Shown here: in pieces, positions 147 to 56,270 of the stretch
How positions within the stretch are numbered: the stretch's first letter is position 1
Layout: each line of letters begins with the position of its first letter
DNA from: Eledone cirrhosa
Taxonomy: Eukaryota
NCBI GenBank assembly: GCA_964016885.1
Contig: OZ024744.1
Location: forward strand, 79,732,001 to 79,796,000
DNA: 64,000 bases
Direction: 5' to 3'
The notes under the pieces: model-generated
Seen by the model: only the letters and a program-made list of their open reading frames with translations
Databases searched by the model: none
Told to the model about the DNA's origin: nothing
Made by a program: the position numbers and the translations under genes

Positions 147-2164
147 TTAACGCCACGTATATGTAGATAAACGAAAAGCTTCGAAAAATTCATTAATATC
201 AATCTGTCCATCATTATTAAAGTCCATAGTTCTGCCTAGATTTTCAATATCATTTGCTTGAAAATCTCCAATCTTGGTGTGTCTTAGAAGCATCTTCATT
301 CCATCCTTGAATTCATTCATGGTAATAGTTCCAGAGTTATCGACATCGAATGTTCGAAATATAGTTTCCAATATCTCTCTGTTATCATATAGGTACATTT
401 TAGTCAGTGCGGATGAGTTTTCCAGATCCATCATCTTGAAAGTGTTTTCGTAATTCACCATGTTGTTACTGTCCACATCACAGATCCTGCGAATGATCAA
501 ACGCCATGGCAACTTCACTTTCAACACTTTAGACAAACATTGGCAGAATTCTTCCGTAGTGATTTCCCCCGTTTTACCCGTGTCGAACTCAGCGATAGCT
601 TCCTTAAAATCTGGTAGTTTCATTCGAATCATCTCCTTTATTTTATTGAATGCAGTAGTTTCCAAAGAGATTATTTGGGTCTTTTATGTTCAATTTTTCT
701 AATGCAATCTCATTAGTGATATACTCAACGATGCTTAAATTAGTTACGTCGCCAGTATAGACGATGTAAGCACCTTTGTTGCTTCCTCGTTCGTAATAGT
801 TGGATGCAGAGAAGACGGTTAGCACCTGATTGTTATGTGTGTACTCGAAGCCATTCGGCTTACATTCGTGTGATCTTATCAGAAGTAGAAGATTGTTTTT
901 CTGCAAAAAACGTCCGGTTACGTCTGGTCCAAAATATTTTCCACTACCCCTATATAGATTATCGACGCAGCCAAAGTTTTTTCATTGGGTCACTCCAAAG
1001 AATATCAAGGAAATGTTCCCAGTTTTCCTTGTCATACGTCTCAACATCTGGCCCCTGGCCGTATCACTGATAGAAATTTGTCTCTTGGAATGTTATTGAT
1101 TTTATCTAAATCTAATACGTTCGATATTCCTCCATGTACAACCAATATTTTATGATCGATCAACGAGCCTAATGGCAGTAATTTAAATAACATATTGAAC
1201 ATCACAAGGAGGTTTTTTGAGAAATTTCTATATCGCTGAGTAACTTCTTTTATAAAACCATACCTTCTATTTAAAACAGGATCTTCATGGTTGCCTCTGT
1301 TTAAAAATACGTGATTAGGAAACACTAAAATACAGTAAAATATAATCATGCACACTTCCATGGACTTGTGTCCTCTGTCGACGATGTCACCGTTGAAAAC
1401 ATAAGGATTAGTTGTTGAAGGAAGATTATTTTTGTGAAATATTGTGAGGAGGTCATCCAAACTGCCATGTAAGTCTCCAATAATAGTCACCTTCTTCGTT
1501 ACTGACGTGGTCACATTATACAGATTCTTTCGAGTTTTTCATTTTCAAAATCATATCCTTCAGTATCTTCGAAACATAAGCAGCATGAATTAATTTTCNN
1601 NNNNNNNNNNNNNNNNNNNNNNNNNNNNNNNNNNNNNNNNNNNNNNNNNNNNNNNNNNNNNNNNNNNNNNNNNNNNNNNNNNNNNNNNNNNNNNNNNNNN
1701 NNNNNNNNNNNNNNNNNNNNNNNNNNNNNNNNNNNNNNNNNNNNNNNNNNNNNNNNNNNNNNNNNNNNNNNNNNNNNNNNNNNNNNNNNNNNNNNNNNGA
1801 AAAAGAGCTTCTTCAGTGGTAGACGAGTATTGAGTGGACAAATTGTAACTCAGATGTTGACTGATTAAATTTATTTATCTTTGTGTCTTGAAATTCTTGA
1901 ATCAATAATTTAAACATCTTACTCAGTCTTAATTGATCTTGTTCGCCGAATATTCAAGCTCTTGAATATATTCCAGGCCACTTCTCTTCGTATTATCAGC
2001 TTGCTTGACCAAGCACGAAACCATTTCTGAATCAACAGAGCTGCCTTCACGTCCGATAATGTCAATGAGACGGGAAGGGATTCTCTGTGACTTCTGAAAA
2101 AAGGTGATAAATTAGAGACAGCTGTCGGGCTTCTGGTCATTATCTTCGAACAGCAGCTGCCCAT
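147..2164 (-). CDS. PPEF: Ser/Thr protein phosphatase with EF-hands (PPEF/rdgC family), apparently intronless; frameshifted as assembled and interrupted by an N gap
   Basis: Collinear ORF pieces. N-terminal MGSCCSK acylation motif and IQ motif AALLIQKWFR (1919-2164). PPP catalytic motifs GDLHG, GDIVDRG, NRGNHE, VHGG (1041-1514), DILWSDP and FGPDVT (~920-1010), IRSHE and TVFSASNYY (643-906). C-terminal EF-hands DTGKTGEITTEE, DVDNSGTITMNE, DFNNDGQIDINE (147-665). Frame changes occur at short homopolymers, so gene versus pseudogene status is uncertain. Confidence 0.9.
1599..1798. other. Assembly gap (200 N)
   Basis: Run of N in the sequence. Confidence 1.
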
Positions 2165-2459
2165 ATCAAACTTTCGATTCAGTTATGAATCTCCTATCTT
2201 TCCAATCTATCTATCAATAAAGAAATCTATCTTTCCAATATAGATAGATGATGTTAAAATTCGTCTTCTTCCTCCGACAACATCATTTCAAGTAAAAATG
2301 TCGCCGCTGGCGACGTGTGCAATCTCTTAAAACCTCTTATGTTGTCACTGCGTGCATTTTACTTTGTAACTTATTGCTATCTGCTTAGGTATATATGCAA
2401 CGGCACTCTTCTTTTTTTTTTCTTTTTCTTTTTTACGACATACTGTCTTTGAGTGAGTT

Positions 2460-2488
2460 TTTATATATACTATATATATGTATATATA

Positions 2489-2556
<68 letters not shown>

Positions 2557-2588
2557 GTGTATCTCTCCTCTCTCTATATATATATCTG

Positions 2589-2640
<52 letters not shown>

Positions 2641-2703
2641 TATATGTATTCATACACACACACATTTTTATTTACTATATATATATATATATATATATAT
2701 ACA

Positions 2704-2748
<45 letters not shown>

Positions 2749-2750
2749 CA

Positions 2751-2801
<51 letters not shown>

Positions 2802-2830
2802 GCAATGTGTATGTATGTATGTATATTTTT
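2460..2830. repeat. Compound (TA)n/(CA)n microsatellite
   Basis: Direct reading; it produces the spurious YIYI ORFs. Confidence 0.97.
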
Positions 2831-3331
2831 GTTTTATGTGCGTGTTGGGAGGTGAGGGGTGCATGTACACATATTAAGTGCGAATACTAATTAGAATAAT
2901 GATGATAATGATAGTTGATTGATGAGTAAAGAAAAGAGTGCTGAAGAAAGGTTCCCTTCTTTTCACTGTTTCTATCAGGTTTACAATTTTCCATTAACAC
3001 TGACAACGAACCAACCACTGGATATAATAAGAATAAAAATAATTCGGCTGCATACTATAGTGAATGTCATTAATTGTCTTCAGAGACCCATAGCTGATCC
3101 ATACGAGTTTAAACCTATAGCTAATTATGAATGAACGTGAAGTAAGCGGACAGTCCAGCCACAAATGATGGACAATGGAAGCTAGCTAATGTCTTTGTGC
3201 GGTAGATAACAAAACCTTTTTGTTCTTGAAATACGATTCTAACAGTTATTAACTGACCGTTTCTCATCATCAACCAGTTCAGTTCTGTACGTGTTTGCTT
3301 TTTTTAAAACAAATTTTTATATATATATATC

Positions 3332-3367
<36 letters not shown>

Positions 3368-3378
3368 ATTATATATAT

Positions 3379-3416
<38 letters not shown>

Positions 3417-3455
3417 AAAATAAAAAGTCAAATGTTAAAATTTAGCTTCGTTATT

Positions 3456-3511
3456 ACTGCTATATATATTTCGGTGACAGCCATCTTTTGGCTGTGACCT
3501 CTTCAGGCAGT
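3456..3511 (-). ncRNA. Minimal type I hammerhead ribozyme (inverted copy)
   Basis: Reverse complement of the 3733-3787 motif, with the core intact. Confidence 0.83.
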
Positions 3512-3732
3512 CCGAATTAGTGTGGTAGAGACAAGGTATATATGTTGTTGAGGTGTATAACTTTGTCAATACTCTGATATGCCCAGTTCCTGGTTGGGTT
3601 GTTATTTCATTGAGGAAATGTTTCCAGTTCCTCAGTGAAATAACAACCCAACCAGGAACTGGGCATATCAGAGTATTGACAAAGTTATACACCTCAACAA
3701 CATATATACTTGTCTCTACCACACTAATTCGG

Positions 3733-3787
3733 ACTGCCTGAAGAGGTCACAGCCAAAGATGGCTGTCACCGAAATATATATAGCAGT
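3733..3787 (+). ncRNA. Minimal type I hammerhead ribozyme
   Basis: ACUGC (helix I)-CUGAAGA-GGUCACAGCC/GGCUGUCACC (helix II)-GAAA-UAUAUA-UA-GCAGU (helix I'). Predicted cleavage after A3782. Confidence 0.85.
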
Positions 3788-4111
3788 AATAAACGAAGCT
3801 AAATTTTAAACTTTTGACTTTTTATTTTACTTTATTTTACACTACTCCGGAGTAACCAAACCAACCTGCTCCAGCCTGCATTCTGAGGTGTTGGTATACA
3901 ACCAACATATACTCAAAATCTATATATGGCGGAGTCCCAGCATGGCCTCAGACGGATGGCTGAAACAGGTAAAAGAGGTAAAAGAGATATGTATATATAT
4001 ATATATATAAGCAAAGAGATATTTAATTTGCTGGTAATTCAACAAATTTATTTATTATAACAGATTCGAAGCACTCTACAGTATTTCCTGGAGTATAATA
4101 TCAATGATATT

Positions 4112-4297
4112 AATTGTTTCTACTTTTGGCACAAGACCAGTAAATACTCAATACATTACTGGTACTTTATTTTATTTACCCCGTAAGGATGAAAGGCAAA
4201 GTTAACTCGGCGGGATTTAAACTCAGAATGGCAAGGGCCGTAACTCTATGTGTCAAAGCATGGCGTCCGACGCCTCTACCGATACTGCCAATCCACC
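4112..4297 (-). mobile_element. tRNA-derived SINE (Meta/MESC-like core GCCTTTCATCCTTACGGGGTCGATAAAATAAAGTACCAG)
   Basis: A-box GGCAGTATCGGTAG and B-box GAGTTTAAATCC. Other copies at ~19620-19730, 39626-39800, 58945-59042 and 62130-62345. Confidence 0.8.
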
Positions 4298-4669
4298 ACC
4301 ATCAATGATATTAATAAATGGAAACTATATTTATAAAACCATATTTATTTTATTATTATATATTTCAAGGGTACCAAAACTTTGGTACGCTCGCATCAGA
4401 TAAAATACAAAATTTGTTTTATACATAGTGACATACCCGATAAACCAGACCTTTTCGGTTCAGGTTCTATTTGGACATATATATATACACACACACACAT
4501 CACACACACATATATTGTGTGTGTATGATTGCGGTGGTGCTTTTTTTTCTTTCTTTTCTAACAAAACTACATTCCTAACTAGGGAAGAAAAAAAATCATT
4601 ACACACAAACACAGAGAGAATGATAGGAAGATAGCTAGCTAGAGAGAGAGGGAAAGAGAGATAGGTAGA

Positions 4670-7600
4670 TAAATTTCTTTATTAGCCACAAGGGCACAAA
4701 AGAAGGGGACAAATACAAATGGGGAGTTTACATACAGGTATATGAAAATAAAACTATTAATAAAACAACAAATAACAATTGAAATCCCCAATAGGGGGGA
4801 GGCGTTACACAGGGGTTGTACACACCCCGAAAAAATGTACAACCCTCATCTCCAGGAGCACCAAGAGTGAGTACTCCCTTCCTCTCTTCCTCTTTTTCCT
4901 CAACCTACAGGCTTATATAGGGAGAAGGCCCAACCACTCGGGCCATCTTTGCCACATTCACCCACCTTTCATAAAATTTGCTGGGGTACAGCACCTCTCT
5001 CTCCATCCTGATTCTTCTTCCAAAGTGGTATTTGAAAAAACGAATCAGTTGTTCGCCGGAGAGAAAGGTGTCTGACCTCAGCCCTTTTAACCTCGTCCAC
5101 CATATAACCTCTTTCACCATAGCCATAACACATAGGAAAACCGCTTCTCCTTCGTTTTTGAAGGATGGTGGCGGTTTGATCATGACAATGGACTCGGTGG
5201 TCAACTGGATTGGTCCCACCCGCGACAATAGTCGTTCTACATAGCCCCACAGGTCGGGAACGCCCGGGCAGTGTACAAATACGTGTGCGACGGTTTCCTC
5301 GTCGCGTACGCATCTCGGACAGATCTTTTTCGAAGGGTCCCTGCCCGGACGCCCATGTCTGTAGAGCTTGTCTCGAACTGGTAGAGCTCCTTGGTAGCAC
5401 TGCCAGGCCAGGGACTTTTGGAAGTTGTCCATCGGTCCCGGGCGGAAGGTACTACCGAACAGACTGGCCAGTTCGTCCCCCTCTACGCCCAGAGTTTCTC
5501 CGAGCGCGTCGTCGCACTTGCTGCGGACCAACCCTCTATAGAATGACGAAGTGGAGTCTCCACTGATCGCCGGGTCCGTTTGCCAGAGACTGCGAGCGCC
5601 TGAGCACATTCGATGTGCCAGTCGCCCATTTCCTCGGTCTTTGCTTGACCCAGGACTGCAGCTCGGTCAGCGAGACGAGTCGTAGGAAGGCTCGCCTCAC
5701 GAACGGGGCCCACACCAGTTGTCCGGTGAGGAATACGTGGAGGTGCCGCAGCCTGAGCGCGTGTTTGCGCATCGTCAGCCACGGCATCCCCAGCCCTCCG
5801 TTTGAAGAGTGTTGGCAGCAGATGGATCTTCTCACCAAAGGAGCCCGTTTCTTCCAAAGCAATTGAAAGAGCGCACGCTCCATTTTGGTGAGCGTTTTGG
5901 CTGGACAAGACACGACGGTCAAGCGATAGTAGATGACGGACGCTATAAAAGTGTTCGTCACCTCTGTTCGACCTTTCAAGGATAGTTTGCACTCGGCCCA
6001 CTTCTGGGTGAGCGCAAATACCTTGTCCGTCACCTCGTTCCAGTTCTTCTCCACCTGGAGGTCCGGACCAAACCAGACTCCGAGCAGCTTTACCGGTCCT
6101 TCCGTCCAGAGTCCGACGCCGCCATCGGAAGGCATCGGTTTGCCTCTCCACGTTCCGAGTTACAAACCGACGGATTTGTCCCGGTTCAGCTTCGCTCCTG
6201 TGAACCTTTCGTATTCCTTCAGTAAGGTGTCGACCTCCCCGATTTGCGAGGTGCTCGACACCATTACTGTCACGTGGTCGGCGTAGGCCGATGCCGCTTT
6301 CCGCAGTCCCGGTTCCAAAGGGATGTCCTGCAATAGCTCCAACTTCCGCAGTAGTGGCTTGAGAGTCAGAAGGGAGGAGAGATGGCATCCCTGTCGGATG
6401 GATCGCGTGATATGGAACGGCTCCGAGAGGTAGCTGTTCACCTTGACCCTTGAGCAGATGTTGCTGCTGTGCATTGCAGCAATCCAGCCCCTTAACACGG
6501 TACCGAAGCCTGCCGCCTCGAGCACCGCATCCAGGTAACGATGGTCAACCCTATCGAAAGCCTTAGACTGATCCAAGTTGATCAGGGCCCCACCGAAGCC
6601 GGATTTACACCCTACTCTCTCTATGATGTATCGCATGAGGTGGAGGTTGTCGTGTATGGACCTGGTCGGGATTGCGCATGTCTGCGCTTCTCCCATCAGG
6701 TTTTCGACGACAAGCGCCAGCCTTTTTGCCAACACCTTGGCCAAAATCTGTAACTCTGCGTTTAGCAGAGTTATGGGCCGGAAGTTGCCTATGTCACCCC
6801 CTTATTCTCGTCCTTCCTGGCTAGCATGACTACGCCCTTGGTCACAGAACTGGGAATTCTCCCGTTCTGCTGCCAGTTGCAGTAGACCGCTTCCAAGAGA
6901 CCGGAGAACAAATCCGGCATTGCTACGTAAAATTCGTAGCGTAGACCGTCGGACCTGGAGATTTGCGTTTGCCGCATTGGCTCAGCACGTCCTCTATCTT
7001 AGCGGCCGAAATCGGCCTTTCGCAGAACTTCGCCTCGCTGTCCGAGAGTCGCGGCAGGCCGTCGAGGTATGGACCGAAATCCATAGCCCCTCTCCCGGCG
7101 CGGCGCCCTGCCCGAACAGTTGAGCAAAGTGCTGCTGAAAGGCCGCGCACATCTGCTTCTGATCACGTATCACGCGTCCGTCTTGGTCCTTCAAAGACCG
7201 AATCGTGGACTTGTTGCCGCTTTTCGCCTCCATCGCTCGGGCCCAGCTAACAGCTTTGGCTGCCTCGTTTCCCAGAGCACGTATTTTGCTCCTGACAACG
7301 CGGTCTAAGGACGTTCTCGTCGCTAGCACGCTGGCTACGTTTCCACTCCTAAGTGCCTCTTCTACTTTATCTAGCAGTTACTTTTCGGTCTTATTTCTAT
7401 CTAACACTAATTCTTTACTAAAACCTATCGAGTCTAATCTAACTGCCCTCTTGAGAGAGTACCACCATCTGTTGGTGACAATAGCCCCGTCAGGTGTTGC
7501 TTAACTATAGTGCTAATCCGTCTACTGTAGGCTTTGCATGTCGGTAACGACAAGTTCAGCCTCCAGTAGCCGGGTTCCTGTCTATGGATTCTGTCAAGGT

Positions 7601-8612
7601 TGACTATGCAGGTCACTAGTTTGTGATCTGAATAGGCAACCATGGAGATTTGTGGACAGCTTAACATGTCCCTATCACTAACTCTAACTAGAAACCTATC
7701 TAGGTACGATCTAGATGTCCCGCTATGGTTGGTCCACGTCCACAGTGGTACAGTCGGAAAATCTAGTCGATATCTATCGGCCAGTTGAAATCGGCCGATT
7801 AACTGTTTGAGGCTGTTACACCCGCCTCTATCGAGACATGCTCCCACATAGTCCCATTGTGCATCTAGGATTCCATTCCAGTACCCCACTAACAGCAAGG
7901 AGCGGGACGTTCCCAGAAAAGTCTCTAGACGTTTGAAGAAGTCTGGCTGCGGTGTCCTAGATAGGGCATATGCGGCCACCAACCTGGAGGCTTCACCTTC
8001 ACTACCGTCAACGTCTAGGACCACCAGTCGACCCTCCGGGTCCAGATGTACCGTCTGTGTTACGAGGTCCAAGTGTTTCCGCAGCAAAACGGCAACCCCA
8101 CCCCCACCTCCCGGCTGACAAAGAGATGTGTAAATCTCAAAGTCGTCTAAGATGGGGGCCAGTTGCTGCTCGCTGTGGATCCTGGACACGCAAATGGCTA
8201 CTACATCCATACCGTGCGACCTGAGGTCGTTTAAGAGTTTGCCCTGTTTCCAGGGCAACCCCAGGCCGCGTACATTCACACATCCAACTCTTATATTGGC
8301 CATGTTGGTGCTGAAAAGTTAAAAGAAGAGGAAAAGAAATCACTCACCTCTTCGTCTCCTGGGGACCAGGCTGCACAATTTCTATGGGGGTGTTGGAGGG
8401 ATTGTTTGGTGGTGGTTTCTGGCGGGGTGGGGACGGAGATGTTTGGTGGAGAGAGGGTTCTGGTGGGATGGGGCTGTCTGGAGTGGGGGTGTCTGGGTTG
8501 GGGGTGGGGAAACATTTTAACAGGACTCGATTGTAGGGTTTGACGCAGGGGTTACCTACGTGGTTAGGAAATTTTCCTTTTAACTGTTTATGTGTGTCCA
8601 TGGAGATCCTAA
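4670..8612 (-). mobile_element. Tx1/L1-clade non-LTR retrotransposon, near-complete degenerate ORF2 (4905-8303) plus 3' UTR; 5'-truncated
   Basis: APE endonuclease start MANIRVGCVNVRGL ... SYLDRF ... SDHKLV. RT motifs RPITLLN, LDQSKAFDRVDH, RQGCHLS, AYADH, KLLGVWF. C-terminal zinc knuckle CPRC...ETVAHVFVHC. Several frameshifts. 3' UTR ends at an AATAAAGAAAT motif. Confidence 0.93.
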
Positions 8613-8614
8613 TC

Positions 8615-8832
8615 ATTTTAGGTAGATAGAGAGAGAGAGGGGGGAGAATGATAGGAAGATAGATAGAGAGAGAGAGGGGAGAATGATAGGTAGATAGATA
8701 GAGAGAGAGAGGGAGGAGAATGATAGGTAGATAGATAGATAGATAGAGAGGGGGGGGGAATGATAGGTAGATAGAGAAAGGGGGAGAATGATAGGTAGAT
8801 AGATAGAGAGAAGGGAAAATGATAGATAGATA
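8615..8832. repeat. Compound minisatellite (GA)n(G)nGAATGATAGGTAGATAGATA
   Basis: About six imperfect copies read directly. Confidence 0.85.
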
Positions 8833-9682
8833 GATTTCTTTATTTGCCACAAGGGCGCACAAGAAAAGGGGACAATACAAAGACATGCCGGGGATTTTAC
8901 ATATAGTCGTGTAAAAAATATGAAACAAACAATTATAACAATCGAAATCCCCAATAGGGGGGAAGCACCACAAATACCCCGTCGATAGAACAACCCTCAA
9001 CTTCAGGAGCGTCTTCCTTTTGCTCTCTTCTTTAACCTACAGGGTTATAAACAGAGAAGGTCCAATCACTCGGGCCATTTTTGTCACATTCACCCACCTT
9101 TCAGTAAATTTACTGCAGTGCAGTGCCTCTTTCTCCACCCTGATTCTCCTTCTAAAGTGATACTTAAAGAAGGGAATCAATTGTTGTCCGAAGAGAAAGG
9201 CATCTGTCCTCAGTCCTCTCAACCTCGTCCACCATATAACTTCTTTCACCATAGCCACTGTACAGAGGAAAACCGCCTCCCTTTCGTTTTTGAAAGAGGT
9301 TTGCGGTTTGATCCTTACTATGGACTCGGCAGTCAACTGGATTTGTCCCATACGCAACAGCAGTTGTTCTGCCTAGTTCCACAGGTCGGTTACGCCCGGG
9401 AAGTGTACAATTGCGTGCAGGACTGTTTCAATGTCATGCGCGCATCTTGGACATGTCCTCTTGGAAGGATCCCTGCCGGGGCGTCCGTGCCTGTAGGTCT
9501 TGTCGCGAACCGGTAGAGCTCCTCGGTAGCACTGCCAGGCCAGGGACCTCTGGAAGTTGTCCATAGGTCCCGGGCGGAAAGTCCTACCAAACAGACTGGT
9601 GAGCTCATCGTCTTCGACGCCCAGAGTCTCTCCGAGCACGTCGTCGCCCTTGTAACGTACAATCCCTCTATAGAATGTCGAG
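8833..9682 (-). mobile_element. Tx1-type LINE 3' fragment, copy 2
   Basis: Same ORF2 C-terminus (FQRSLAWQCYRGALPVRDK, KEVIWWTRLRGL) and same 3' UTR as 4670-8612. Confidence 0.9.
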
Positions 9683-9714
9683 CTAGAGAGAGAGAGAATG
9701 ATAGGTAGATAGAT

Positions 9715-11052
9715 ATATTTCTTTATTTGCCACAAGGGCGCACAAGAAAAAGGGGACAAAACAGACACATGCCAGGGATTTTACATACAGTCGTGTAAAA
9801 ATATTGAAACAAATTTAACAATCGAAATCCCCAAAAGGGGGGAGGCGTTACAAATGGGTTGTTTAATAGATAGAACAACCCTCAACTTCAGGAGCGTGTT
9901 GTGCAAGTGTTCCTTTCTTCCTTTTGCTACAGGTTTATATACAGAGAAGGCCCAATCACTCGGGCCATTTTTGCTACAATCACCCACCTTTCAGTAAATT
10001 TACTGGGGTACAGTGCCTCTCTCCACTCTGATTCTCCTAAACTGGTACCTAAAGAAGGGAATGAGTTGTCCGGAGAGAAAGGCGTCTGTCCTCAGACCTC
10101 TTAATCTCGTCCACCATATAACCTCTTTCACCATCGCCACTATTCAGAGGAAAACCGCCTCTCTTTCGTTTTTGAAAGAAGTTGGCGGTTTGATCCTTAC
10201 TATGGACTCGGCAGTCAACTGGATTTGTCCAGCAGTTGTTCTGCATAGTTCCACAGGTCGGTTACGCCTAGGCAGTGTACAATTGCGTGCGAGACAGTTT
10301 CAATGTCCTGCCCGCATCTTGGACACGTCCTCTTGGAAGGATCCCTGCCGGGGCGTCCGTGCGTGTAGATCTTATTTCGAACGGGTAGAGCTCTTCGGTA
10401 GCACTACCAGGCCAGGGACCTCTGGAAGTTGTCCATAGGTCCCGGGCGGAAAGTCTTACCAAACGTCTTCAACGCCTAGAGTCTCTCCGAGCACGTTGTC
10501 GCTCTTATGACGCACTAACCCTCTATAGAATGTCAAAGTGGAGTCTCCACTGATTGCTGTGCCCGCTTGTCAGAGGACTGTGAGCGCCTGAGCGCATTCA
10601 ATGTGCCAGGCGCCCATCTTCTTTGGTCTCCGCTTGACCCAGGACTGCAGCTCCGTCAGCGAGACAAGTTGCGAGAAGGCCTGTCTCACAAACGGTGCCC
10701 ACACCGGTTGGTCGGTGGGAATACCTGTAGATGACGTAGCCTCTGCGCATCATCAGCCACGACATTCCCAGCCCCCCGTTGGAAGGGTAGTGACAGCAGA
10801 CGGATCTCCTCACCAGTAGAGCCTGCTTCTTCCAAAGGAACTGGAAGAGCATGGGTTCCATCTTGGTGAGGTGTTCACGTGGACAAGGCACGACGGTCAA
10901 GCGGTAGTAGATGACGGACAATATGAAAGTGTTCTCGACCTTTCAAGGATAGTTTACACTCTGCCCACTTCTGGGTGAGCGCAAACATCTTGGCCGTGAC
11001 CAGTTTTTCTCCACCTGGAAGTCCGGACCGAACCAGACCCCAAGCAATTTCA
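9715..11052 (-). mobile_element. Tx1-type LINE 3' fragment, copy 3
   Basis: KLLGVWFGPDFQVEKNW through the C-terminus and 3' UTR. Confidence 0.9.
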
Positions 11053-11527
11053 CCAAGGGCGCACAAGAAAAGGGGACAAAACAAAGACATATGCCGGGGA
11101 TTTTAAATATTGAAACAAATTCAACAATCGAAATCCCCAATAGAGGAGAGGCGTTACAAATGGATTGTTTAATACCCCGTAGATAGAACAACCCTCAACT
11201 TCAGGAACGTGTTGTGCAAGTGCTCCTTTCTCCTTTTGTTTCTCATCTTCAACCTACAGGTTTATATACAGAGAAGGCCCAATCACTCGGGCCATTTTTG
11301 CTACAATCACCCACCTTTCAGTAAATTTACTGGGGTGCAGTGCCTCTCGCTCCACGCTGATTCTCCTTCTAAAGTGATACCTAAAGAAGGGAATGAACTG
11401 TTGTCCGGAGAGAAAGGCATCTGTCGTCAGTCCTCTCAATCTCGTCCACCATATAATCTCTTTTACCATAGCCTCTATACAGAGGAAAACCGCCTCCCTT
11501 TCGTTTAAAAAAAAAAGTTGGCGGTTT
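11053..11527 (-). mobile_element. Tx1-type LINE 3' fragment, copy 4
   Basis: MVKEIIWWTRLRGL...VIGPSLYINL plus a 3' UTR lacking the terminal tail. Confidence 0.88.
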
Positions 11528-11685: not shown

Positions 11686-12403
11686 TGTAACGGAATATTA
11701 TGTGTGGTTGTAACGATAAGTGGATGGATGGATGTAACTGTTGGTATGGTGGTTTCGATGTAAAGAAAAATACCAGGATTGTGCTGTTACAAAGTTTATT
11801 TTATTACAACAATATTCAATTTGAATATTGAATGATAAAATAATTGACACAAAATATTCATACAATAATTTGGTGGTTCTTCGAGCCACGTAAATTCAAG
11901 TATCACAGAATACGATTGTAATATGTGTAAACAGAAATGAATGGTGCTTGTACAAATGCTGGACTCACTATGAATGCGTGTGTGCGGCGTATCAGTATAT
12001 TTACTTATTTGTATTGCAGGAGTCAGCGATCAGCCAGGGAGGTGAGAATAAATGGCAGACTGGTTTTTTGTGACGAGAGCGTGTAAAAACGTCTCGTCTT
12101 GTCTGTATCCCACTTCTTTTCTACTCGAGGCGTAAACAATCCCTGTCTTTATAAGAGTTGAAGTTAGAAGGATAGATATCTCCTCTGAACTTTGGTTAGT
12201 CTCCCAAGGGATTAGTTTGCCAAGCGTAAACAAGTCAGAAAGATGGATATATCCTCTGACCTATTTTCTGTCAGGCGTAAACACCTCTGACCTGTGTTTA
12301 GCCTCCCCCAAGGAGTTAGTCTCCTGAGCGTAAACAAGTTACCACGGCTTGTCCCAGAGGCGGGAAAGCTCAGATTCGGTTTCGAATCTTCGCCGCCGTT
12401 ATA
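11686..12403. mobile_element. Probable solo LTR (Gypsy-like), 718 bp
   Basis: Termini TGTAACGG...CCGTTATA (short inverted repeat, CA>TA). Flanking 4-bp direct repeat CATG at 11682-11685 and 12404-12407. Internal TATAA at ~12150. Confidence 0.6.
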
Positions 12404-12867
12404 CATGTATACACGTTCGTTTGTACACACATACATGTATACACGTTCGTTTGTACACACATACATGTATACACGTTCGTTTGTACACACATACATGTAT
12501 ACACGTTCGTTTGTACACACATACATGTATACACGTTCGTTTGTACACACAAACATGTATACACGTTCGTTTGTACACACAAACATGTATACACGTTCGT
12601 TTGTACACACAAACATGTATACACGTTCGTTTGTACACACATACATGTATACACGTTCGTTTGTACACACATACATGTATACACGTTCGTTTGTACACAC
12701 ATACATGTATACACGTTCGTTCGTACAGACATACATGTATACACGTTCGTTCGTACACACAAACATGTATACACGTTCGTTTGTACACACATACATGTAT
12801 ACACGTTCGTTTGTACACACATACATGTATACACGTTCGTTTGTACACACATACATGCATACACGTT
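12401..12867. repeat. 30-bp tandem minisatellite ATACATGTATACACGTTCGTTTGTACACAC, ~15.5 copies
   Basis: Direct reading; almost homogeneous, no spacers. Confidence 0.97.
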
Positions 12868-15575: not shown

Positions 15576-16808
15576 CAGGGCCCAATTTTGACCTTAGAGG
15601 GCCCGAGGCACTTCAGGTATTGGAGGTCCCCTCATACACAAAAAATTATAACACACCAAACCCCGAATTTTACATATCAAAGTTGACTGGCGCAAGTAGT
15701 TGGAATTGAAAAGTTATGCATGCAGGTATTAAATTAAAAAAGTCTAACCATCTTTATTTTACGTCCACTTTCCACACTGGCCTGTGTTGGACAGGTTGTC
15801 AGATATATCGGAGCAGCCTAATCTTGCTCATACATTACATATTTGGCACGGTTTCTATGGCTGGATGCCCTTCCTAACATAACCACTTTAGAGTGTTTAC
15901 TGGGTGCATTGTTTTTGCGATACCAGCACAACCACTTTACACAGTGGCATCAGAAATAACCTTATGTCTCTAAAGTTGAGAAAATTTTATGATTTTTGCC
16001 ACAGTAAGGATATTAAATATGCTTTGTTAAAAATATAGTTCTTGTAGTCAAGGGGTTAAAACTGAAAACCTCAGTGGTCATGTTGGTGTCACGACAAAAA
16101 GCACCCAGCCCACACTGTAAAGTGGTCATGTAGGTATCACAACAAAAAAAGTACCCAATACACACTGTAAAGTGGTCATGTAGGTATCACAACAAAAAGC
16201 ACCCAGGCCACACTGTAAAGTGGTTGTGTAGGTGTCACGACAAAAAGTACCCAGCACATACTGTAAATGAGATTGGTACTTGGAACGGCATCCATCTGTA
16301 GAAACCAAGTCAAAATTAGTTCTGTGTAAGCAAGAAAAGGTCACACAACAGGATAACTCATCTAACCCATGCCAGTGTGGAAAAATGGATGTTAAACAGT
16401 GATGATAATAATATACAGTCTTTTGTAGCAGTAAAAAAAAAAAAATAAATGGAGTGATTGCACCAAATTAATTGTGTAACGTCATCTACAAATTTTTATT
16501 TTCGGATTGTATTTGCTCAGAGTTACATGTACATTTCTTTGAAGACAATACTTCAATGTAATACACGATGACGTGATAGCCATTATAAAACACTTAGTTC
16601 ATTACTAAGAGCACACACTAGACATAATAAATTAAAATTTGGTGAATACCTTCTCACCTCATGATAAATTTATATGAATAAGACAATAATGTAATCCAAA
16701 CTAATTTATTCTATATTAGGTTTGGGGTAGGTGTAAGGGTAGGACTAATTCAATTAGTTTCTAATTAATTGACACTTGATTGACAGCTATGTAAACAGAA
16801 AACATGAA

Positions 16809-17229
16809 TAAACCCTTTAGCATTTAAACTGGCCATAGTATCCAGCCAGAATTCTCTAGCCTCTTTCTGTTAAAACCAGATGTAACTGGTTGCTCATACT
16901 TATTTTAAGGTATTGGTCTCAATATAAATAATATCAAAATCTTGTATATTCGATATTATGTGACATGATTATGTAAGGGAAGTGAAAATACAATAGTAAA
17001 TATAAAGTAATGTAAATGCTAAAGGGCTAATCCTTTAGCATTTAAACTGACCATATCCAGCCAGAATTCTCTCACCTCTTTCTATTCAAACTGGCCGCTC
17101 ATACTGATGTTAAGGTATGGTTTTCAAAATAAATAATATCATAATCTTATAGATATTATGTGAGGTAAAGCCTTTACTGTGAAAATACAATAGTATATAT
17201 ATAGAGTAATGTAAATGTTAAAGGGTTAA
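16809..17229 (+). mobile_element. Tandem pair of ~210-bp TTAA-type (piggyBac-like) MITEs
   Basis: TIR CCCTTTAGCATTTA / TAAATGCTAAAGGG, same family as 33542-33762. Confidence 0.8.
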
Positions 17230-17294
17230 CTCTAACTCTAACTCTAACCCCAATCTTAATTTGGAATAAATTAGTTTGGATTAGTTTTATTTTG

Positions 17295-17535
17295 TGAAGC
17301 TGCGTTGTCTAGTGGTTACTATTCCTGGACATTGTGTTCTTGAGTAAAACACTTTATTTTATGTTGCTCCAGAATACCCAGCTGAAAAATGAGTACCAGC
17401 ATTAACTGGGAGTTAATTCTGTGATGGACTGGCGTCATGTCCAGGAGGATAGAGTCTTGTAGTTTCAGTTGCTTAACACCAAGGAAACTGGGATAAGAAC
17501 CTACTGGTGAGCCTCTGGGCTTGAGACAGACTAAC
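17295..17535 (+). mobile_element. tRNA-derived CORE-like SINE
   Basis: TAGTGGTTA head and TGTGTTCTTGAGTAAAACACTTTATTT...CAGCTGAAAAATGAGTACC core. Other copies at ~22447, 42308, 46010, 49100 and 60450. Confidence 0.65.
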
Positions 17536-18079
17536 TTTAACGTATTTATATTAATTTCTCCCAAGGTTGAGGTGTGGTGGGGTGGCTCTTTTGGAAAATA
17601 ATTTGATCATTTTTCACGATTTCTGTCACCACTGCCTATATAGTAACACTTGTATTTTGGTTAACACTCTAGATATGTTCTTCAACATGCAGTGTTCTAG
17701 AAAAACTTAACAATCTCCTATTTGTAACAACCATGGAGCTAAAGGAGCTTGAAGGATGCAATGTTTTGACAGCTGAACAACTGATGCAGGTAGTTTGTGG
17801 CATATATAAGCCGACACCCCATTTTACCATCAATGTTTTGGTCACATATTCCTCAGCTTGTATTCGAGTATATACAGTTATCAACTTTACACATTAGTAC
17901 ACAGGCCTACTCACCATTAATTTATTTACAAACAGCAGTGAAAAATAGTGCATAAGAGGTTGTAGCTGAGAAGTACTAGGCTGTGTTTCTTCGTTGCTTT
18001 TCGAAAAATCCATCTAATTTTATGTGTATATTTTTGAGTCCTCCCATGAAGCAAGTCATGGTAGCAAGATATAATGTCT

Positions 18080-18978
18080 TCAAAAAGAAGTACCCAGTCC
18101 ACCCTGTAAGGTTGTCGTGTTGGTGACATGACAAAAAGCACCCAGTCCACCATGTAAGGTTGTCGTGTTGGTGACATGACAAAAAGCACCCAGTCCACTC
18201 TGTAACATGCTGATGACATGACAAAAAACATTCAGTCCACCCTGTAATGTTGTGCTGGTGACATAACCAAAGCACCCAGTCCATTCTATAAGGTTGTGCT
18301 TGTGACATGACAAAAAGCACTCAGTCCACCCTAAGGTTGTTGTGCTGGTGACATGCTAAAAAGCATCCAGTCCACCCTGTAAGGTTGTGCTGGTGACATT
18401 ACAAAAAGCACCCAGTCCCACCTGTAAGGTTGTTGTACTGATGACATGACAAAAAGCAACCAGCCCACCCTGTAAGGTTGTGCTGGTGACACACCAAAAA
18501 GATTCCATTATACCTTGTTAGGGTGTCATGCAAGTGATATGACAAAACACACTCAATCTACTCTGTAAGGTTGTTGTGCTGGTGACCCAGCAAGAAGCTC
18601 CCAGTCCATTCTGTACAATGGTTGCGTTGGTGACACAAGGGGCTCCCAATCCACTCTGTATAATGGTTGTGTTGGTGACATGATAAAAAGTTCCCAGCCA
18701 ACCCTGTAAAGTGGTTATGCTCACGACATGAGTAAAAAGCCCCAAGTCCACCATGTAAGGCAGTCGTGCTGGTAACACAAAGAAAAACACCCAGTTAATG
18801 TTCATTTTGGTGCCATGATAAAAAAAAGCATCCTGTCCATACTGTAATGTGGTTGACATTAGAGAGGACATCCAGCTATAGAAACCAAGCAAAAATACAC
18901 ATTCCTATGAGCAACATATGGTCTCCTGACCTGACTTGAAAGCATAGAAAAATAGATGTTAAACATTGATGATGATGA
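18080..18978 (+). repeat. Expanded ~48-bp tandem array (AAAAGCACCCAGTCCACCCTGTAAGGTTGTCGTGTTGGTGACATGAC) ending in an RTE-type 3' tail with (GAT)n
   Basis: About 16 diverged copies. The same unit occurs in the RTE 3' UTRs and at 16075-16270, 26180-26430 and 54000-54380. Confidence 0.85.
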
Positions 18979-29455: not shown

Positions 29456-31053
29456 TATATAACTATCTCCTGCACATATAAGAACTGCTACTTGAGAATA
29501 TCAGACATATGCTTATTGGTCAGTGAAGTGAATAACACATATGACTGGTAACATATCAACTTCACATCTCGTTTGGATTTTTGTCTGAAGAGAACATGTA
29601 GGGCAGCTGTTATACAATTACCCGTCTTTGAAATACATATAACAAAATAAATAGGGATGTACAAATGAAACCTTTCTTGTTTATTATATATATATATACC
29701 GAGAGAGAGAGACCTCATAGTTTCCATCAACCAAATTCACCAATAAAGTATTAGTTTCTCCAAGCTAGTAATGCTTAGAGAAAAATTTACACATATGCTG
29801 TGCTGATGATATACTAAAATTTAAAGAAATCTCAGAAAAGTTACAAAGTCACAACCAACATTATCTCTAGTTGTATTTCAATATAAAGAGAGAGAGAGAG
29901 AAAGAGAGATTATGTCTTGGATTCTGGAGAACAATTATAGCCACAGTTAGTTTGGGTGCATTAACCGTTACCATTTACATTACTCTATATATTCTATTGT
30001 ATTTTTGTAGTAAAGGATTTATCTTACATAATATCGAATCTATGAGAATTTGAAATTATTTATGTTGAGAACAATACCTTAACATAAGTATGAGTGGCCA
30101 GTTACAGGCGGTTTGAACAGAAAGAGGTAGAGAATTGTGGCCGGATACGGACGGTTTAAATGCTAAAGTGTTAAATACATTTTTGCATTCTTGTAATAAT
30201 TGTAGTGAAAGTTTTTATGAGAAAGAGTAAATCATCAACATTGTTTTTACATTGACTTTTCTATGCTGGTATGTGTTGTACAGGACTTTTTGAGGCAGTG
30301 TTTACAGCCAGATACCCAAGTTTCTTCTATTAATCTCTTGATGAAGGGATTTTTATCCTGAAATATAAGGATCTGTAAAGAACTACAAGATAACATCCCA
30401 ACATCATTGTTATCATCACATTTTTAACATTTACTGTCCAGTTCACATTGTGGTAGCCTTTAAATACAACACTATTTTCTACACTTTACACAGTGCTTGA
30501 AGCAAACTACAAGTCTTACTCCATGTCCTTGTCAGCATTCTACTAAGTCAAAAGTAGGTTTATACAGACATCTCAGAACACACAGACAGAGCCGGATTTC
30601 GGGGAACTTCAGGTTTAGGGAGCCCCTGATACACAAAAAATTAGAATACACAGCCCCCGCCCCATCAATTTTACATATCAAAGTTAGCTTGGTGCAAGGA
30701 ATAGGAATTGAAAAGTTATACATACAGGTATTAAATTAAAACATTCTAACCATCCTAAAACTAAAAAGCTCAGCTGTCTTTGTATCCAGCCAGAATTCTC
30801 TCACCCCTTTCTGTTCAAACCAGCCATAACCAGCTGCTCATACTTATGTTAAAATATTGTTCTCAAAATAAATAATACCAAAATCTTGTAGATTCAATAT
30901 TATGTGAGATAATTATGCGAAATAAAGTTTTTACTGTGAAAATACAATAGTAAATATCGAGTAATGTAAATGCTAAAGGGTTAAATCAAACAGTTTCAGG
31001 TGGTTTGGTATTAAAAAGGTGAAACAAGTTTATAAACAATAAAAAAAACATAC

Positions 31054-51874: not shown

Positions 51875-52390
51875 TAATGATGAAGTACAAGTCAACATGT
51901 TATAATTTACTTAATCTATTCATAATTGCTGTTATATACATTTCGGTGATAACTGTTATACAATTATGACCACATCAGACAGCTAGAAGTTGAACAAAAA
52001 AAAAAAAAAAAATGACACAAAGAAGAAATAAAATTTACTCCTGTTGTTTTGATTCATTGATATAACCTGGGCTGATACTTGGTGTTGCTTTCTGTCACTG
52101 GTGCTTTGAGAAAGCAACACCAAATATCAACCCGGGATATATCAATGAATCGAAACAACAGGAGTAATTTTTATTTCTTGACGTTTTTCAGTTTTTTCTG
52201 TTCAACATAAGTTGTCTGATGAGGTCATAACTGTTATCACTGAAATACATATAACAACTATTGTGATAAATGAAGTAAATTCTAGCCTGTTAACTTGTAC
52301 TTTATTATTATATAATTATACTCCGGAGTAAACAGACCCACATGTATACTTTGTGGAGTGCTCTATCCTGCATAACACATTCTTTACCAT
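51875..52390. mobile_element. Penelope-like pLTR-type element with inverted arms (51875-52310), hammerhead in each arm
   Basis: Diverged palindrome centred at ~52100. Downstream CTCCGGAGTAA as in the 3411 element. Flanked by (TA)n. Confidence 0.72.
52210..52259 (+). ncRNA. Minimal type I hammerhead ribozyme
   Basis: AGUUGU-CUGAUGA-GGUCAUAAC/GUUAUCACU-GAAA-UACAUA-UA-ACAACU. The inverted copy at 51928-51983(-) has core CUGAUGU. Confidence 0.8.
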
Positions 52391-55172: not shown

Positions 55173-55364
55173 ACAACAGTTATTCACAATGCATTGCTTA
55201 GACCATTTTCTGGTGAGAAAAAAAATGTATCTGGCTTATGTGTTTATCTGATTAGTAGGTGATTAGATGGCTAGTCAGTTTATATTGAGCATTACTACAG
55301 TAATATAATCTCTTATGCCAAATACCAGAGAGTTAACTCACACTCAGAACTAAACACTGAATAG

Positions 55365-56071
55365 AAACAAAGACAGCCTAAAAGCTAGACAGTTAACCAT
55401 AGCAACAAAGACACCTGAAAGGAAAGATATTTAGTCATAGCAACAAAGACATCTGAAAGGCTACACAGTTAACCATAGCAACAAAGACTTCGCAAAAGGC
55501 TAGATAGTTAACCATGGCAACAAAGACACCTCAAAGGCTAGATAGTTAACCATGGCAACAAGGTCACTTACTTCAAAGGCTAGAGAGTTAACCATAGCAA
55601 CAAAGACACCTCAAAGGCTATACAGTTAACCATAGCAACAAAGACACTCAAAGGCTACAAAGACACCTCAAAAGCTAGACAGTTACCCATAGCAACAAAG
55701 ACCCCTCAAAGGCTAGACAGTTAACCATAGCAACAAAGACACCTCAAAGGCTATACAGTTAACCATAGCAACAAAGACACCTCAAAGGCTATACAGTTAA
55801 CCATAGCAACAAAGACACTCAAAGGCTACACAATTAACCCTGGCAACAAAGACACCTCAAAAGCTAGACAGTTACCCATAGCAACAAAGACACCTCAAAG
55901 GCTAGACAGTTAACCATGGCAACAAAGACATCTCAAAGACTAGACAGTTAACCATGGCAACAAAGACACCTCAAAGGCTATACAGTTAACCATGGCAACA
56001 AAGACATCTCAAAGACTAGACAGTTAACCATAGCAACAAGGTTACTTACCTCAAAGGCTAGATAGTTAACC
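55365..56071. repeat. 38-bp minisatellite (CCTCAAAGGCTAGACAGTTAACCATAGCAACAAAGACA), ~18 copies, derived from the exon 3' end and donor
   Basis: The unit contains the last ~22 nt of the 56050-56270 exon plus adjacent intron-like sequence. Confidence 0.93.
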
Positions 56072-56270
56072 AACACTGACATGGCATCAAAACCCTTCAG
56101 GGTCTCCTTCAACTGTAACTTGGTAATGTGAAGGTCCTTCGTGTGAGATTCACAAAGACCTTCGAGTCGACTGATTTCTTTTTTGGCATCTTTATTGTCA
56201 GCCTGGCTTGATTTCAGGTTAGTGACTTTACCTCTTGGGCTCTTGTTAACTTTGTTCTGGTCCACTTGGT
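56050..56270 (-). CDS. MTUS1: MTUS-like exon, most 5' one found ((D)QVDQNK...EISRLEGLCESHTKDLHITKLQLKETLKGFDAMSVLVNYLAFE); gene continues beyond the window
   Basis: ttttcag / gtaagt; phase 1 in, phase 0 out. GFDAMSVLVNYL resembles MTUS GFEALTVVIQH. Confidence 0.87.

Follow-up and report, generated by a model that had tools for sequence, protein, structure and literature searches.

Head-to-head pairs of hammerhead-bearing Penelope-like element ends recur in the genome of Eledone cirrhosa and were likely each formed in a single insertion event

Near the start of the window (the whole stretch of 64,000 nucleotides analysed here) lies a palindrome with a hammerhead motif on each strand. Each of its arms is almost certainly the 5'-truncated 3' end (pLTR) of an autonomous Penelope-like element (PLE), and the two are joined head-to-head beside a (TA)n microsatellite. 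Such doublets recur across the genome, and each was likely formed in a single insertion event. The features of the locus are as follows.

3318 to 3412, no strand: (TA)n microsatellite to the left of the element, its insertion target; most copies of the family end in (TA)n
3410 to 3620, minus strand: left arm, a 5'-truncated PLE pLTR that ends at the "short" 3' end and has no tail
3456 to 3511, minus strand: type I hammerhead motif, predicted cut between 3461 and 3460
3618 to 3625, no strand: head-to-head junction at the family's 5'-truncation hot spot, adjoining the element's TCATATGA palindrome
3625 to 3835, plus strand: right arm, a 5'-truncated pLTR with 98% identity to its closest other genomic copies (among 40 scored)
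3733 to 3787, plus strand: type I hammerhead motif, predicted cut after A3782
3836 to 3923, plus strand: tail (long 3' end) of about 90 nt, which continues the right arm and is missing from the left arm
3922 to 3927, no strand: short TA remnant at the right boundary, overlapping the element's own ...CTAT end

An earlier note on this DNA had described a near-perfect inverted repeat beside (TA)n, and this description holds: the repeat measures 426 bp (3410 to 3835), and its arms are 96.7% alike, differing by three substitutions and four one-base indels. Five of these seven differences are one-base indels or changes within or beside homopolymer runs. Both arms carry A at arm position 84, where all 30 of the nearest arms have G, and the exact word at the central junction occurs once in the genome. 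The tail holds the palindrome TACTCCGGAGTA (3843 to 3854) and has a 16-nt deletion relative to other copies. A single stop-to-stop frame of 103 aa overlaps the palindrome on the minus strand, and nothing gene-like was noticed in it. The sequencing records from four of 14 listed runs include copies of the family and no record that spans the doublet locus. Genome-wide, a 24-nt hammerhead word has 3,289 exact copies (1699 + 1590) and its reversed control has none, while two opposite hammerheads spaced 205 to 235 nt apart are found at 139 loci, with a control of 0. Given these two counts against controls of 0, the palindrome with its hammerheads is not a chance arrangement.

When the 3.0-Gb genome was queried with the arm, 1884 candidates were obtained at first look. 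The sequence of thirty fetched copies runs up to (TA)n or a microsatellite like it and stops at either of two places, a short 3' end near arm position 217 and a long one about 100 nt further. On the upstream side, some copies of the family are 5'-truncated and others continue through a long UTR into a GIY-YIG-type endonuclease frame. A protein search led to open stop-to-stop frames of 893-894 aa (loci L035 and L036), and in 17 long loci the arm is found about 1.08 kb after the stop codon, which identifies it as the pLTR of a Penelope encoding RT and GIY-YIG, as the earlier note had asked. In several long loci, a second arm is placed directly before the ORF, in tandem (L039, L040, L043, L050) or inverted (L031, L035, L050) orientation, and in full-length copies the tail sequence continues for about 45 nt to the ATG of the ORF. 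The unit of about 4.1 kb includes an 892-aa ORF (L036) and a 3' UTR of ~1.1 kb. The proposed Penelope-like origin, the inverted pLTRs, and the youth of the family are borne out. On the other hand, the suggestion of a non-autonomous, retrozyme-like element was not upheld, as each arm is a 5'-truncated end from a family that is itself autonomous, and the hammerheads of the arms lie on opposite strands and not in tandem.

By the clade motifs checked in its sequence, the parent family is an autonomous Hydra-clade PLE. Its single ORF with a telomerase-related RT and a GIY-YIG endonuclease, its partial-tandem pLTRs, its inverted 5'-truncated copies, and its tail at one end are those of EN+ PLEs. The ORF contains YRDD, GIY-YIG-like LVY/IVY..YIG motifs, and the R/E/N residues. 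The Hydra-clade features given by Craig et al. 2021 (PMC8557442) are RWK, DKT, a CxCX5C linker, CxxC, and CxH. In our family, RWK is present as RRMRWKAF (GxKF/Y is not conserved), DKG is altered to DKT (as HADKTNN), the linker reads CNCRNPESC, and CKLC and CRH occur near the C-terminus; the linker and cysteine features were matched by eye to the text of Fig. S7 in the supplement of PMC8557442. The GIY-YIG domain has no CCHH cysteine pair, only a single unconserved Cys near the first motif (IVYGCRVK). These motifs are kept across 16 aligned homologues (of 43), and the family shares the (TA)n preference and the canonical hammerhead of the clade. Its unit of about 4.1 kb departs from the clade's size tendency (<3 kb), which is descriptive and not diagnostic. 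When the predicted fold (pLDDT 76) was compared with known structures, telomerase TERT ranked first (E 3.5e-9), with a TMq of only 0.24. Pfam and PDB sequence searches of the 892-aa ORF and its alignment gave nothing significant for the ORF itself, and Pfam RVT_1 was obtained for one of the 17 aligned members; because Pfam has no real match on the ORF, the EN assignment rests on motifs. The L036 ORF also carries a disordered low-complexity insertion of ~135 aa after the RT thumb (aa ~480-620), which most homologues do not have and which resembles the N-rich inserts of rotifer Penelopes (PMC3846280). A different PLE with GLKF and DKG and an open frame of 697 aa adjoins a family copy at L032 (C7, oriented 7484-9574).

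The complete type I hammerheads with palindromic helix III that had been reported for both strands are indeed present. On the plus strand, helix I is formed by ACUGC (3733-3737) and GCAGU (3783-3787), CUGAAGA occupies 3738-3744 and GAAA 3771-3774, helix II (3745-3754 with 3761-3770) has 10 positions with one C-C mismatch, and helix III consists of the self-complementary AUAUAUAU at 3774-3781. The motifs combine the CUGANGA/GAAA/UH core of type I with helices I-III and compensatory changes. Both hammerheads of the doublet point away from the centre of the palindrome. The AATAAA noted earlier directly follows the plus-strand hammerhead (3788-3793), whereas its minus-strand counterpart is AATAAC, so this claim stands for one arm only. 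An Rfam search of window positions 2000-6000 at E<=5 listed no hammerhead family and returned below-threshold miRNA hairpin look-alikes only.

Covariation of the helices, which the earlier note had named as a test, was found. Two related PLE families, both repeated genome-wide, are present in the same window (at 29585 and 51883-52390), and a tblastn search connected ORFs of the same kind with 6 of 12 loci in the third family and with 2 of 16 in the second. The three families together supply 22 distinct motifs, in which 91.8% of cells are paired, compared with 23-61% in slid controls, and 9 of 18 pairs have changed on both sides, a value reached in 17 of 500 shuffles. Helix I covaries as ACUGC/GCAGU, GCUGU/ACAGC, and UUUGU/ACAAA in the three families. 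The base of helix II covaries as well, and so does the helix III palindrome, where the double change from AUAUAUAU to AUACGUAU keeps self-complementarity. The motifs had been pre-selected by a core regex and at least three helix I pairs, and since they were selected in this way and come from three lineages, the covariation represents few events. Within the family, GAAA and UH vary by 1.5%, compared with 8.4% upstream.

Read-through RNA of the doublet is predicted to collapse into one long hairpin (-353 kcal/mol), in agreement with the ~200-bp dsRNA hairpin that had been anticipated. The self-cleavage anticipated for the same transcript is unlikely according to the model, as hammerhead helices I and II have a pairing probability of 0.000 in the predicted fold of 3411-3925. 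In the context of a folded pLTR, the probability of helix I is 0.01-0.02 and that of helix II 0.84-1.0, and the predicted helix III duplex is weak (-3.2 kcal/mol). The hammerhead in the window doublet is likely a passenger, while that of the parent element is probably under selection and likely processes tandem transcripts as a helix III dimer.

The doublets follow several rules. End types were assigned in 51 doublets, namely the window doublet and the first 50 of the 139 loci, whose search pattern enriches hot-spot junctions because it fixes the spacing. Among them, 45 are long/short, three long/other, two short/short, and one long/long; one long and one short end are thus found in 45 of the 48 doublets with both ends typed (p=1.3e-10 against 0.5). 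Ten further pairs comprise nine long/short and one long/other. Forty further copies, taken in chromosome order and unpaired in the list, include 14 with an adjacent inverted piece, 24 without, and two that could not be judged, and all 11 typed partners have the opposite end type. Altogether, 65 of 68 pairs with both ends typed are long/short (about 95%), or 64 of 67 without L084, which looks like a duplicate of L083.

Moreover, the two arms of a doublet typically come from the same source. Both arms belong to the same subfamily cluster in all 50 doublets compared (29 expected), and they have 33 rare alleles in common, compared with 1.9+-1.4 when arms are re-paired within the subfamily. Discordant common polymorphisms between the arms of these 50 doublets number 46 against a null of 214+-20. 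In 13 of the 50, the arms disagree at two or more of the common polymorphic sites, and L060 has the appearance of a doublet from two sources. Shared haplotypes could also result from gene conversion between arms, but 191 rare alleles are private to one arm against the 33 that are shared.

The 5' truncations cluster as well. A hot spot at ATATGAT/TCATATGA, between arm positions -14 and +1, is the beginning of 20 of 66 hammerhead copies, and through its sequence it offers microhomology with (TA)n as well as with a second cDNA of the same sense. A transcription start or a fixed pLTR boundary was considered for this hot spot and rejected, as full-length copies vary widely in where their upstream pLTR starts. 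The tandem pair L101/L102 (about 500 nt apart) was likewise dismissed as a set of retrozyme units; a microsatellite lies between the two, which look like neighbouring insertions. L016, L009, and L103 are tail-to-tail neighbours with (TA)n between them, probably secondary insertions into the flanking tract. In our assessment, the identity of the family, its link to the ORF, the (TA)n flanks, and the two discrete 3' ends about 100 nt apart are established, and for the doublets the one-long/one-short rule, the common haplotype of the arms, and the truncation hot spot.

The mechanism that we favour, and consider probable rather than firm, is one insertion event in which each of the two target strands primes a cDNA, one at each of the element's two RT start sites, and the cDNAs are then joined head-to-head. 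It is inferred from the end products only. The element's endonuclease would nick both strands of a TA tract, and each nick would prime a cDNA on RNA of the same source, where the template could be two RNAs, a single RNA copied with strand displacement, or a tandem transcript with its two pLTRs. Of the two cDNAs, one would begin at the tail-end site and its partner at the start site that lies about 100 nt upstream. Synthesis of both would tend to end, or the products to be cut back, about 220 nt above the short start. As both cDNAs have the same sense, their 3' ends would then join head-to-head, often via the self-complementary TCATATGA. This two-strand model extends an in vitro result obtained with an anole PLE (PMC11167929).

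The main rival, possible but rather unlikely, invokes a single cDNA, which would start at the tail end, snap back at TCATATGA, and copy itself, whereupon the endonuclease would cut at the short site and open the hairpin. It predicts one long and one short arm with identical haplotypes and needs no further assumptions; self-priming at junction palindromes has been proposed (PMC3846280), as has EN-mediated resolution for the tail (PMC8557442), and short local inversions exist. Three of these end at neither start site (L018 is a further case), which suggests that snap-back copying also occurs. However, the short arm should then remain inside the span of the long arm, and no such polarity is seen: among 44 doublets, the short arm reaches at least 10 nt further 5' in nine and the long arm in six, with 29 within 9 nt. 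In L116, L128, L137, and L147, the short arm reaches 100-500 nt further (in L116 and L137 it is far longer than its tail-only partner). Asymmetric deletion at the centre of the palindrome could mimic independent cDNA lengths and blur this polarity test. Solo short-ended copies also speak against a fold-back, as the inverted partner is absent in 16 of 25 short-ended copies, so that the short end forms on its own. In another PLE, internal RT starts were observed in vitro at both tail ends (PMC11167929).

A dedicated non-autonomous palindromic unit of the retrozyme or MITE-like type, which would spread whole and self-cleave on both strands, is very improbable in general and largely refuted for the window copy. 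The similar size of the 139 doublets, the 137 genomic occurrences of the one perfect TCATATGA junction word, and the intact hammerhead motifs in both arms are what it would lead one to expect. The junction of the window copy is however unique genome-wide, junctions among the sampled doublets are diverse, and in the sample the perfect junction is found on at least four haplotype backgrounds; the doublets were therefore made repeatedly and not copied as a unit. In addition, arms in the family come in graded lengths that extend to the complete element, and the hairpin predicted for the RNA leaves the hammerhead helices unformed. Retrozymes, by definition, are units in tandem whose hammerheads lie on the same strand (bioRxiv 2026.07.22.740005). 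We give marginally less credence still to two independent insertions side by side in one TA tract, or to a fold-back read or assembly artefact. (TA)n tracts do draw repeated insertions, and the five arm differences in or beside homopolymer runs as well as the lack of a record spanning the locus in the four runs would suit these readings. Against both, there is no TA between the arms, the two flanks differ, the tail asymmetry rule and the shared haplotypes hold, and an older doublet of another family in the window obeys the same rule.

Beyond the favoured two-strand insertion, it is conceivable, if quite doubtful, that Hydra PLEs insert as a complex of two RNAs and two enzymes, in which RNAs from the same locus would be joined by helix III, perhaps also by the tail palindrome UACUCCGGAGUA, with one enzyme per start site. 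This idea draws on helix III being kept palindromic by the compensatory change from AUAUAUAU to AUACGUAU. If it were true, the ribozyme would serve to pair templates, either in addition to cutting or in place of it, which would account for the near-obligate long/short pairing and for the retention of weakly cleaving hammerheads by PLEs.

Several other features of the window can be mentioned. The older head-to-head hammerhead doublet at 51883-52390 belongs to a related family (1711 candidates, others ~80% identical); its left arm is tailless and stops at (TA)n, its right arm has a tail, and the TACTCCGGAGTA palindrome is kept. This 12-bp palindrome is situated just 3' of the short end and is common to the two otherwise diverged families (3843-3854 and 52320-52331). 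The predicted self-duplex of its 14-nt form has -21.9 kcal/mol, and its 10-nt core is present in only 5 of the 16 second-family loci and in none of the 12 third-family loci. A solo short-ended pLTR of the third family, with a longer helix II, is located at 29480-29690, and its relatives, with AUACGUAU as helix III, lie downstream of Hydra-type endonuclease frames. The PLE doublet lies ~1.3 kb upstream of an apparently intronless phosphatase with EF-hands (147-2150, minus strand; Pfam Metallophos and EF-hand), which we take to be PPEF/rdgC. Frameshifts and a stop break it up into several frames, and a gap of N lies at ~1599-1798; it represents either a retrocopy or assembly errors. Just downstream of the doublet (4100-4400), a very high-copy SINE-like repeat has a higher read depth than the PLE arm. 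A fragmented LINE with APE endonuclease and RT (RVT_1, Exo_endo_phos) follows at 4900-8320 on the minus strand, with repeats at ~9000-11500, in several degenerate copies. Tandem arrays are found at 12401-12867 (period 30), 16073-18795 (period ~48), and 55361-56072 (period 38 nt).

The window locus itself is routine transposon debris. The family, on the other hand, lends itself well to testing how the inverted pLTRs and one-sided tails of PLEs come about, being young, with open full-length ORFs, hundreds of doublets, and a sharp rule (about 95% long and short, same source) that is directly testable in vitro. If transcribed, the doublets would be potential sources of ~210-bp dsRNA, as far as folding predictions go.

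In LINE-1 twin priming, a 5' inversion arises through priming from both target strands on one source, and the two pieces cover mostly non-overlapping RNA. The PLE doublet is proposed to share the priming from both strands on one source, whereas its arms have about 210 nt in common and start from two fixed sites. A further parallel is Poseidon PAc of Anolis (Frangieh et al. 2024, PMC11167929), whose protein extended both target strands in vitro, used two internal RT start sites that bound the tail, and is predicted to dimerise, with hammerhead cleavage observed only in the presence of protein. PAc and our family have in common two 3' ends that bound the tail and AT-rich targets; they differ in clade, and in that both ends lie upstream of the ATG in our family and inside the ORF in PAc. 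The pairing of the two sites inside inverted doublets is not a subject of the available text on PAc. Like the Hydra-clade PLEs of PMC8557442, the family has a single ORF with RT and then a C-terminal GIY-YIG-type EN, a type I hammerhead near the 3' end, the RWK, DKT, CxCX5C, CxxC, and CxH features, and (TA)n targeting. According to the available text of that paper, Hydra-clade units are generally <3 kb with tails of 30-40 nt, in contrast to about 4.1 kb and about 100 nt here. The octopus family in print there, Hydra-1_Obim, has a different hammerhead sequence, and helix III is AUAU/AUAU in our family whereas the Hydra motifs listed begin with AC (PMC8557442). The short helix I, the long helix II, and the palindromic helix III that is expected to dimerise are those of the minimal PLE hammerheads in PMC4209133, from which the family departs with an 8-nt helix III palindrome that covaries across three families of one genome. 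Non-LTR retrozymes (bioRxiv 10.64898/2026.07.22.740005) are likewise non-coding and pLTR-derived with a type I hammerhead; the doublet, by contrast, is not tandem, carries its hammerheads on opposite strands, and gives no sign that it spreads as one piece.

In published work, cleavage by PLE hammerheads is weak and takes place in dimers. One-sided tails, (TA)n targeting, inverted pLTRs, and pairs of hammerheads on opposite strands have all been published already. In Schistosoma, dual hammerheads 100-700 bp apart on opposite strands were described (Cervera & De la Pena 2014, PMC4209133), and junction palindromes are in print as well (PMC3846280). PMC8557442 reports inverted 5'-truncated pLTRs, often with a tail at one end only, (TA)n targeting by Hydra-clade PLEs, and, in Penelope-13_HM, an attached inverted 5'-truncated copy with a hammerhead on both strands. 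A quantitative long/short, same-source pairing rule was not found in the literature searched, with subscription journals (e.g., older Penelope structure reviews) outside its scope. What is added here is the quantitative detail on long/short pairing, on the shared source of the arms, and on the clustering of junctions at TCATATGA.
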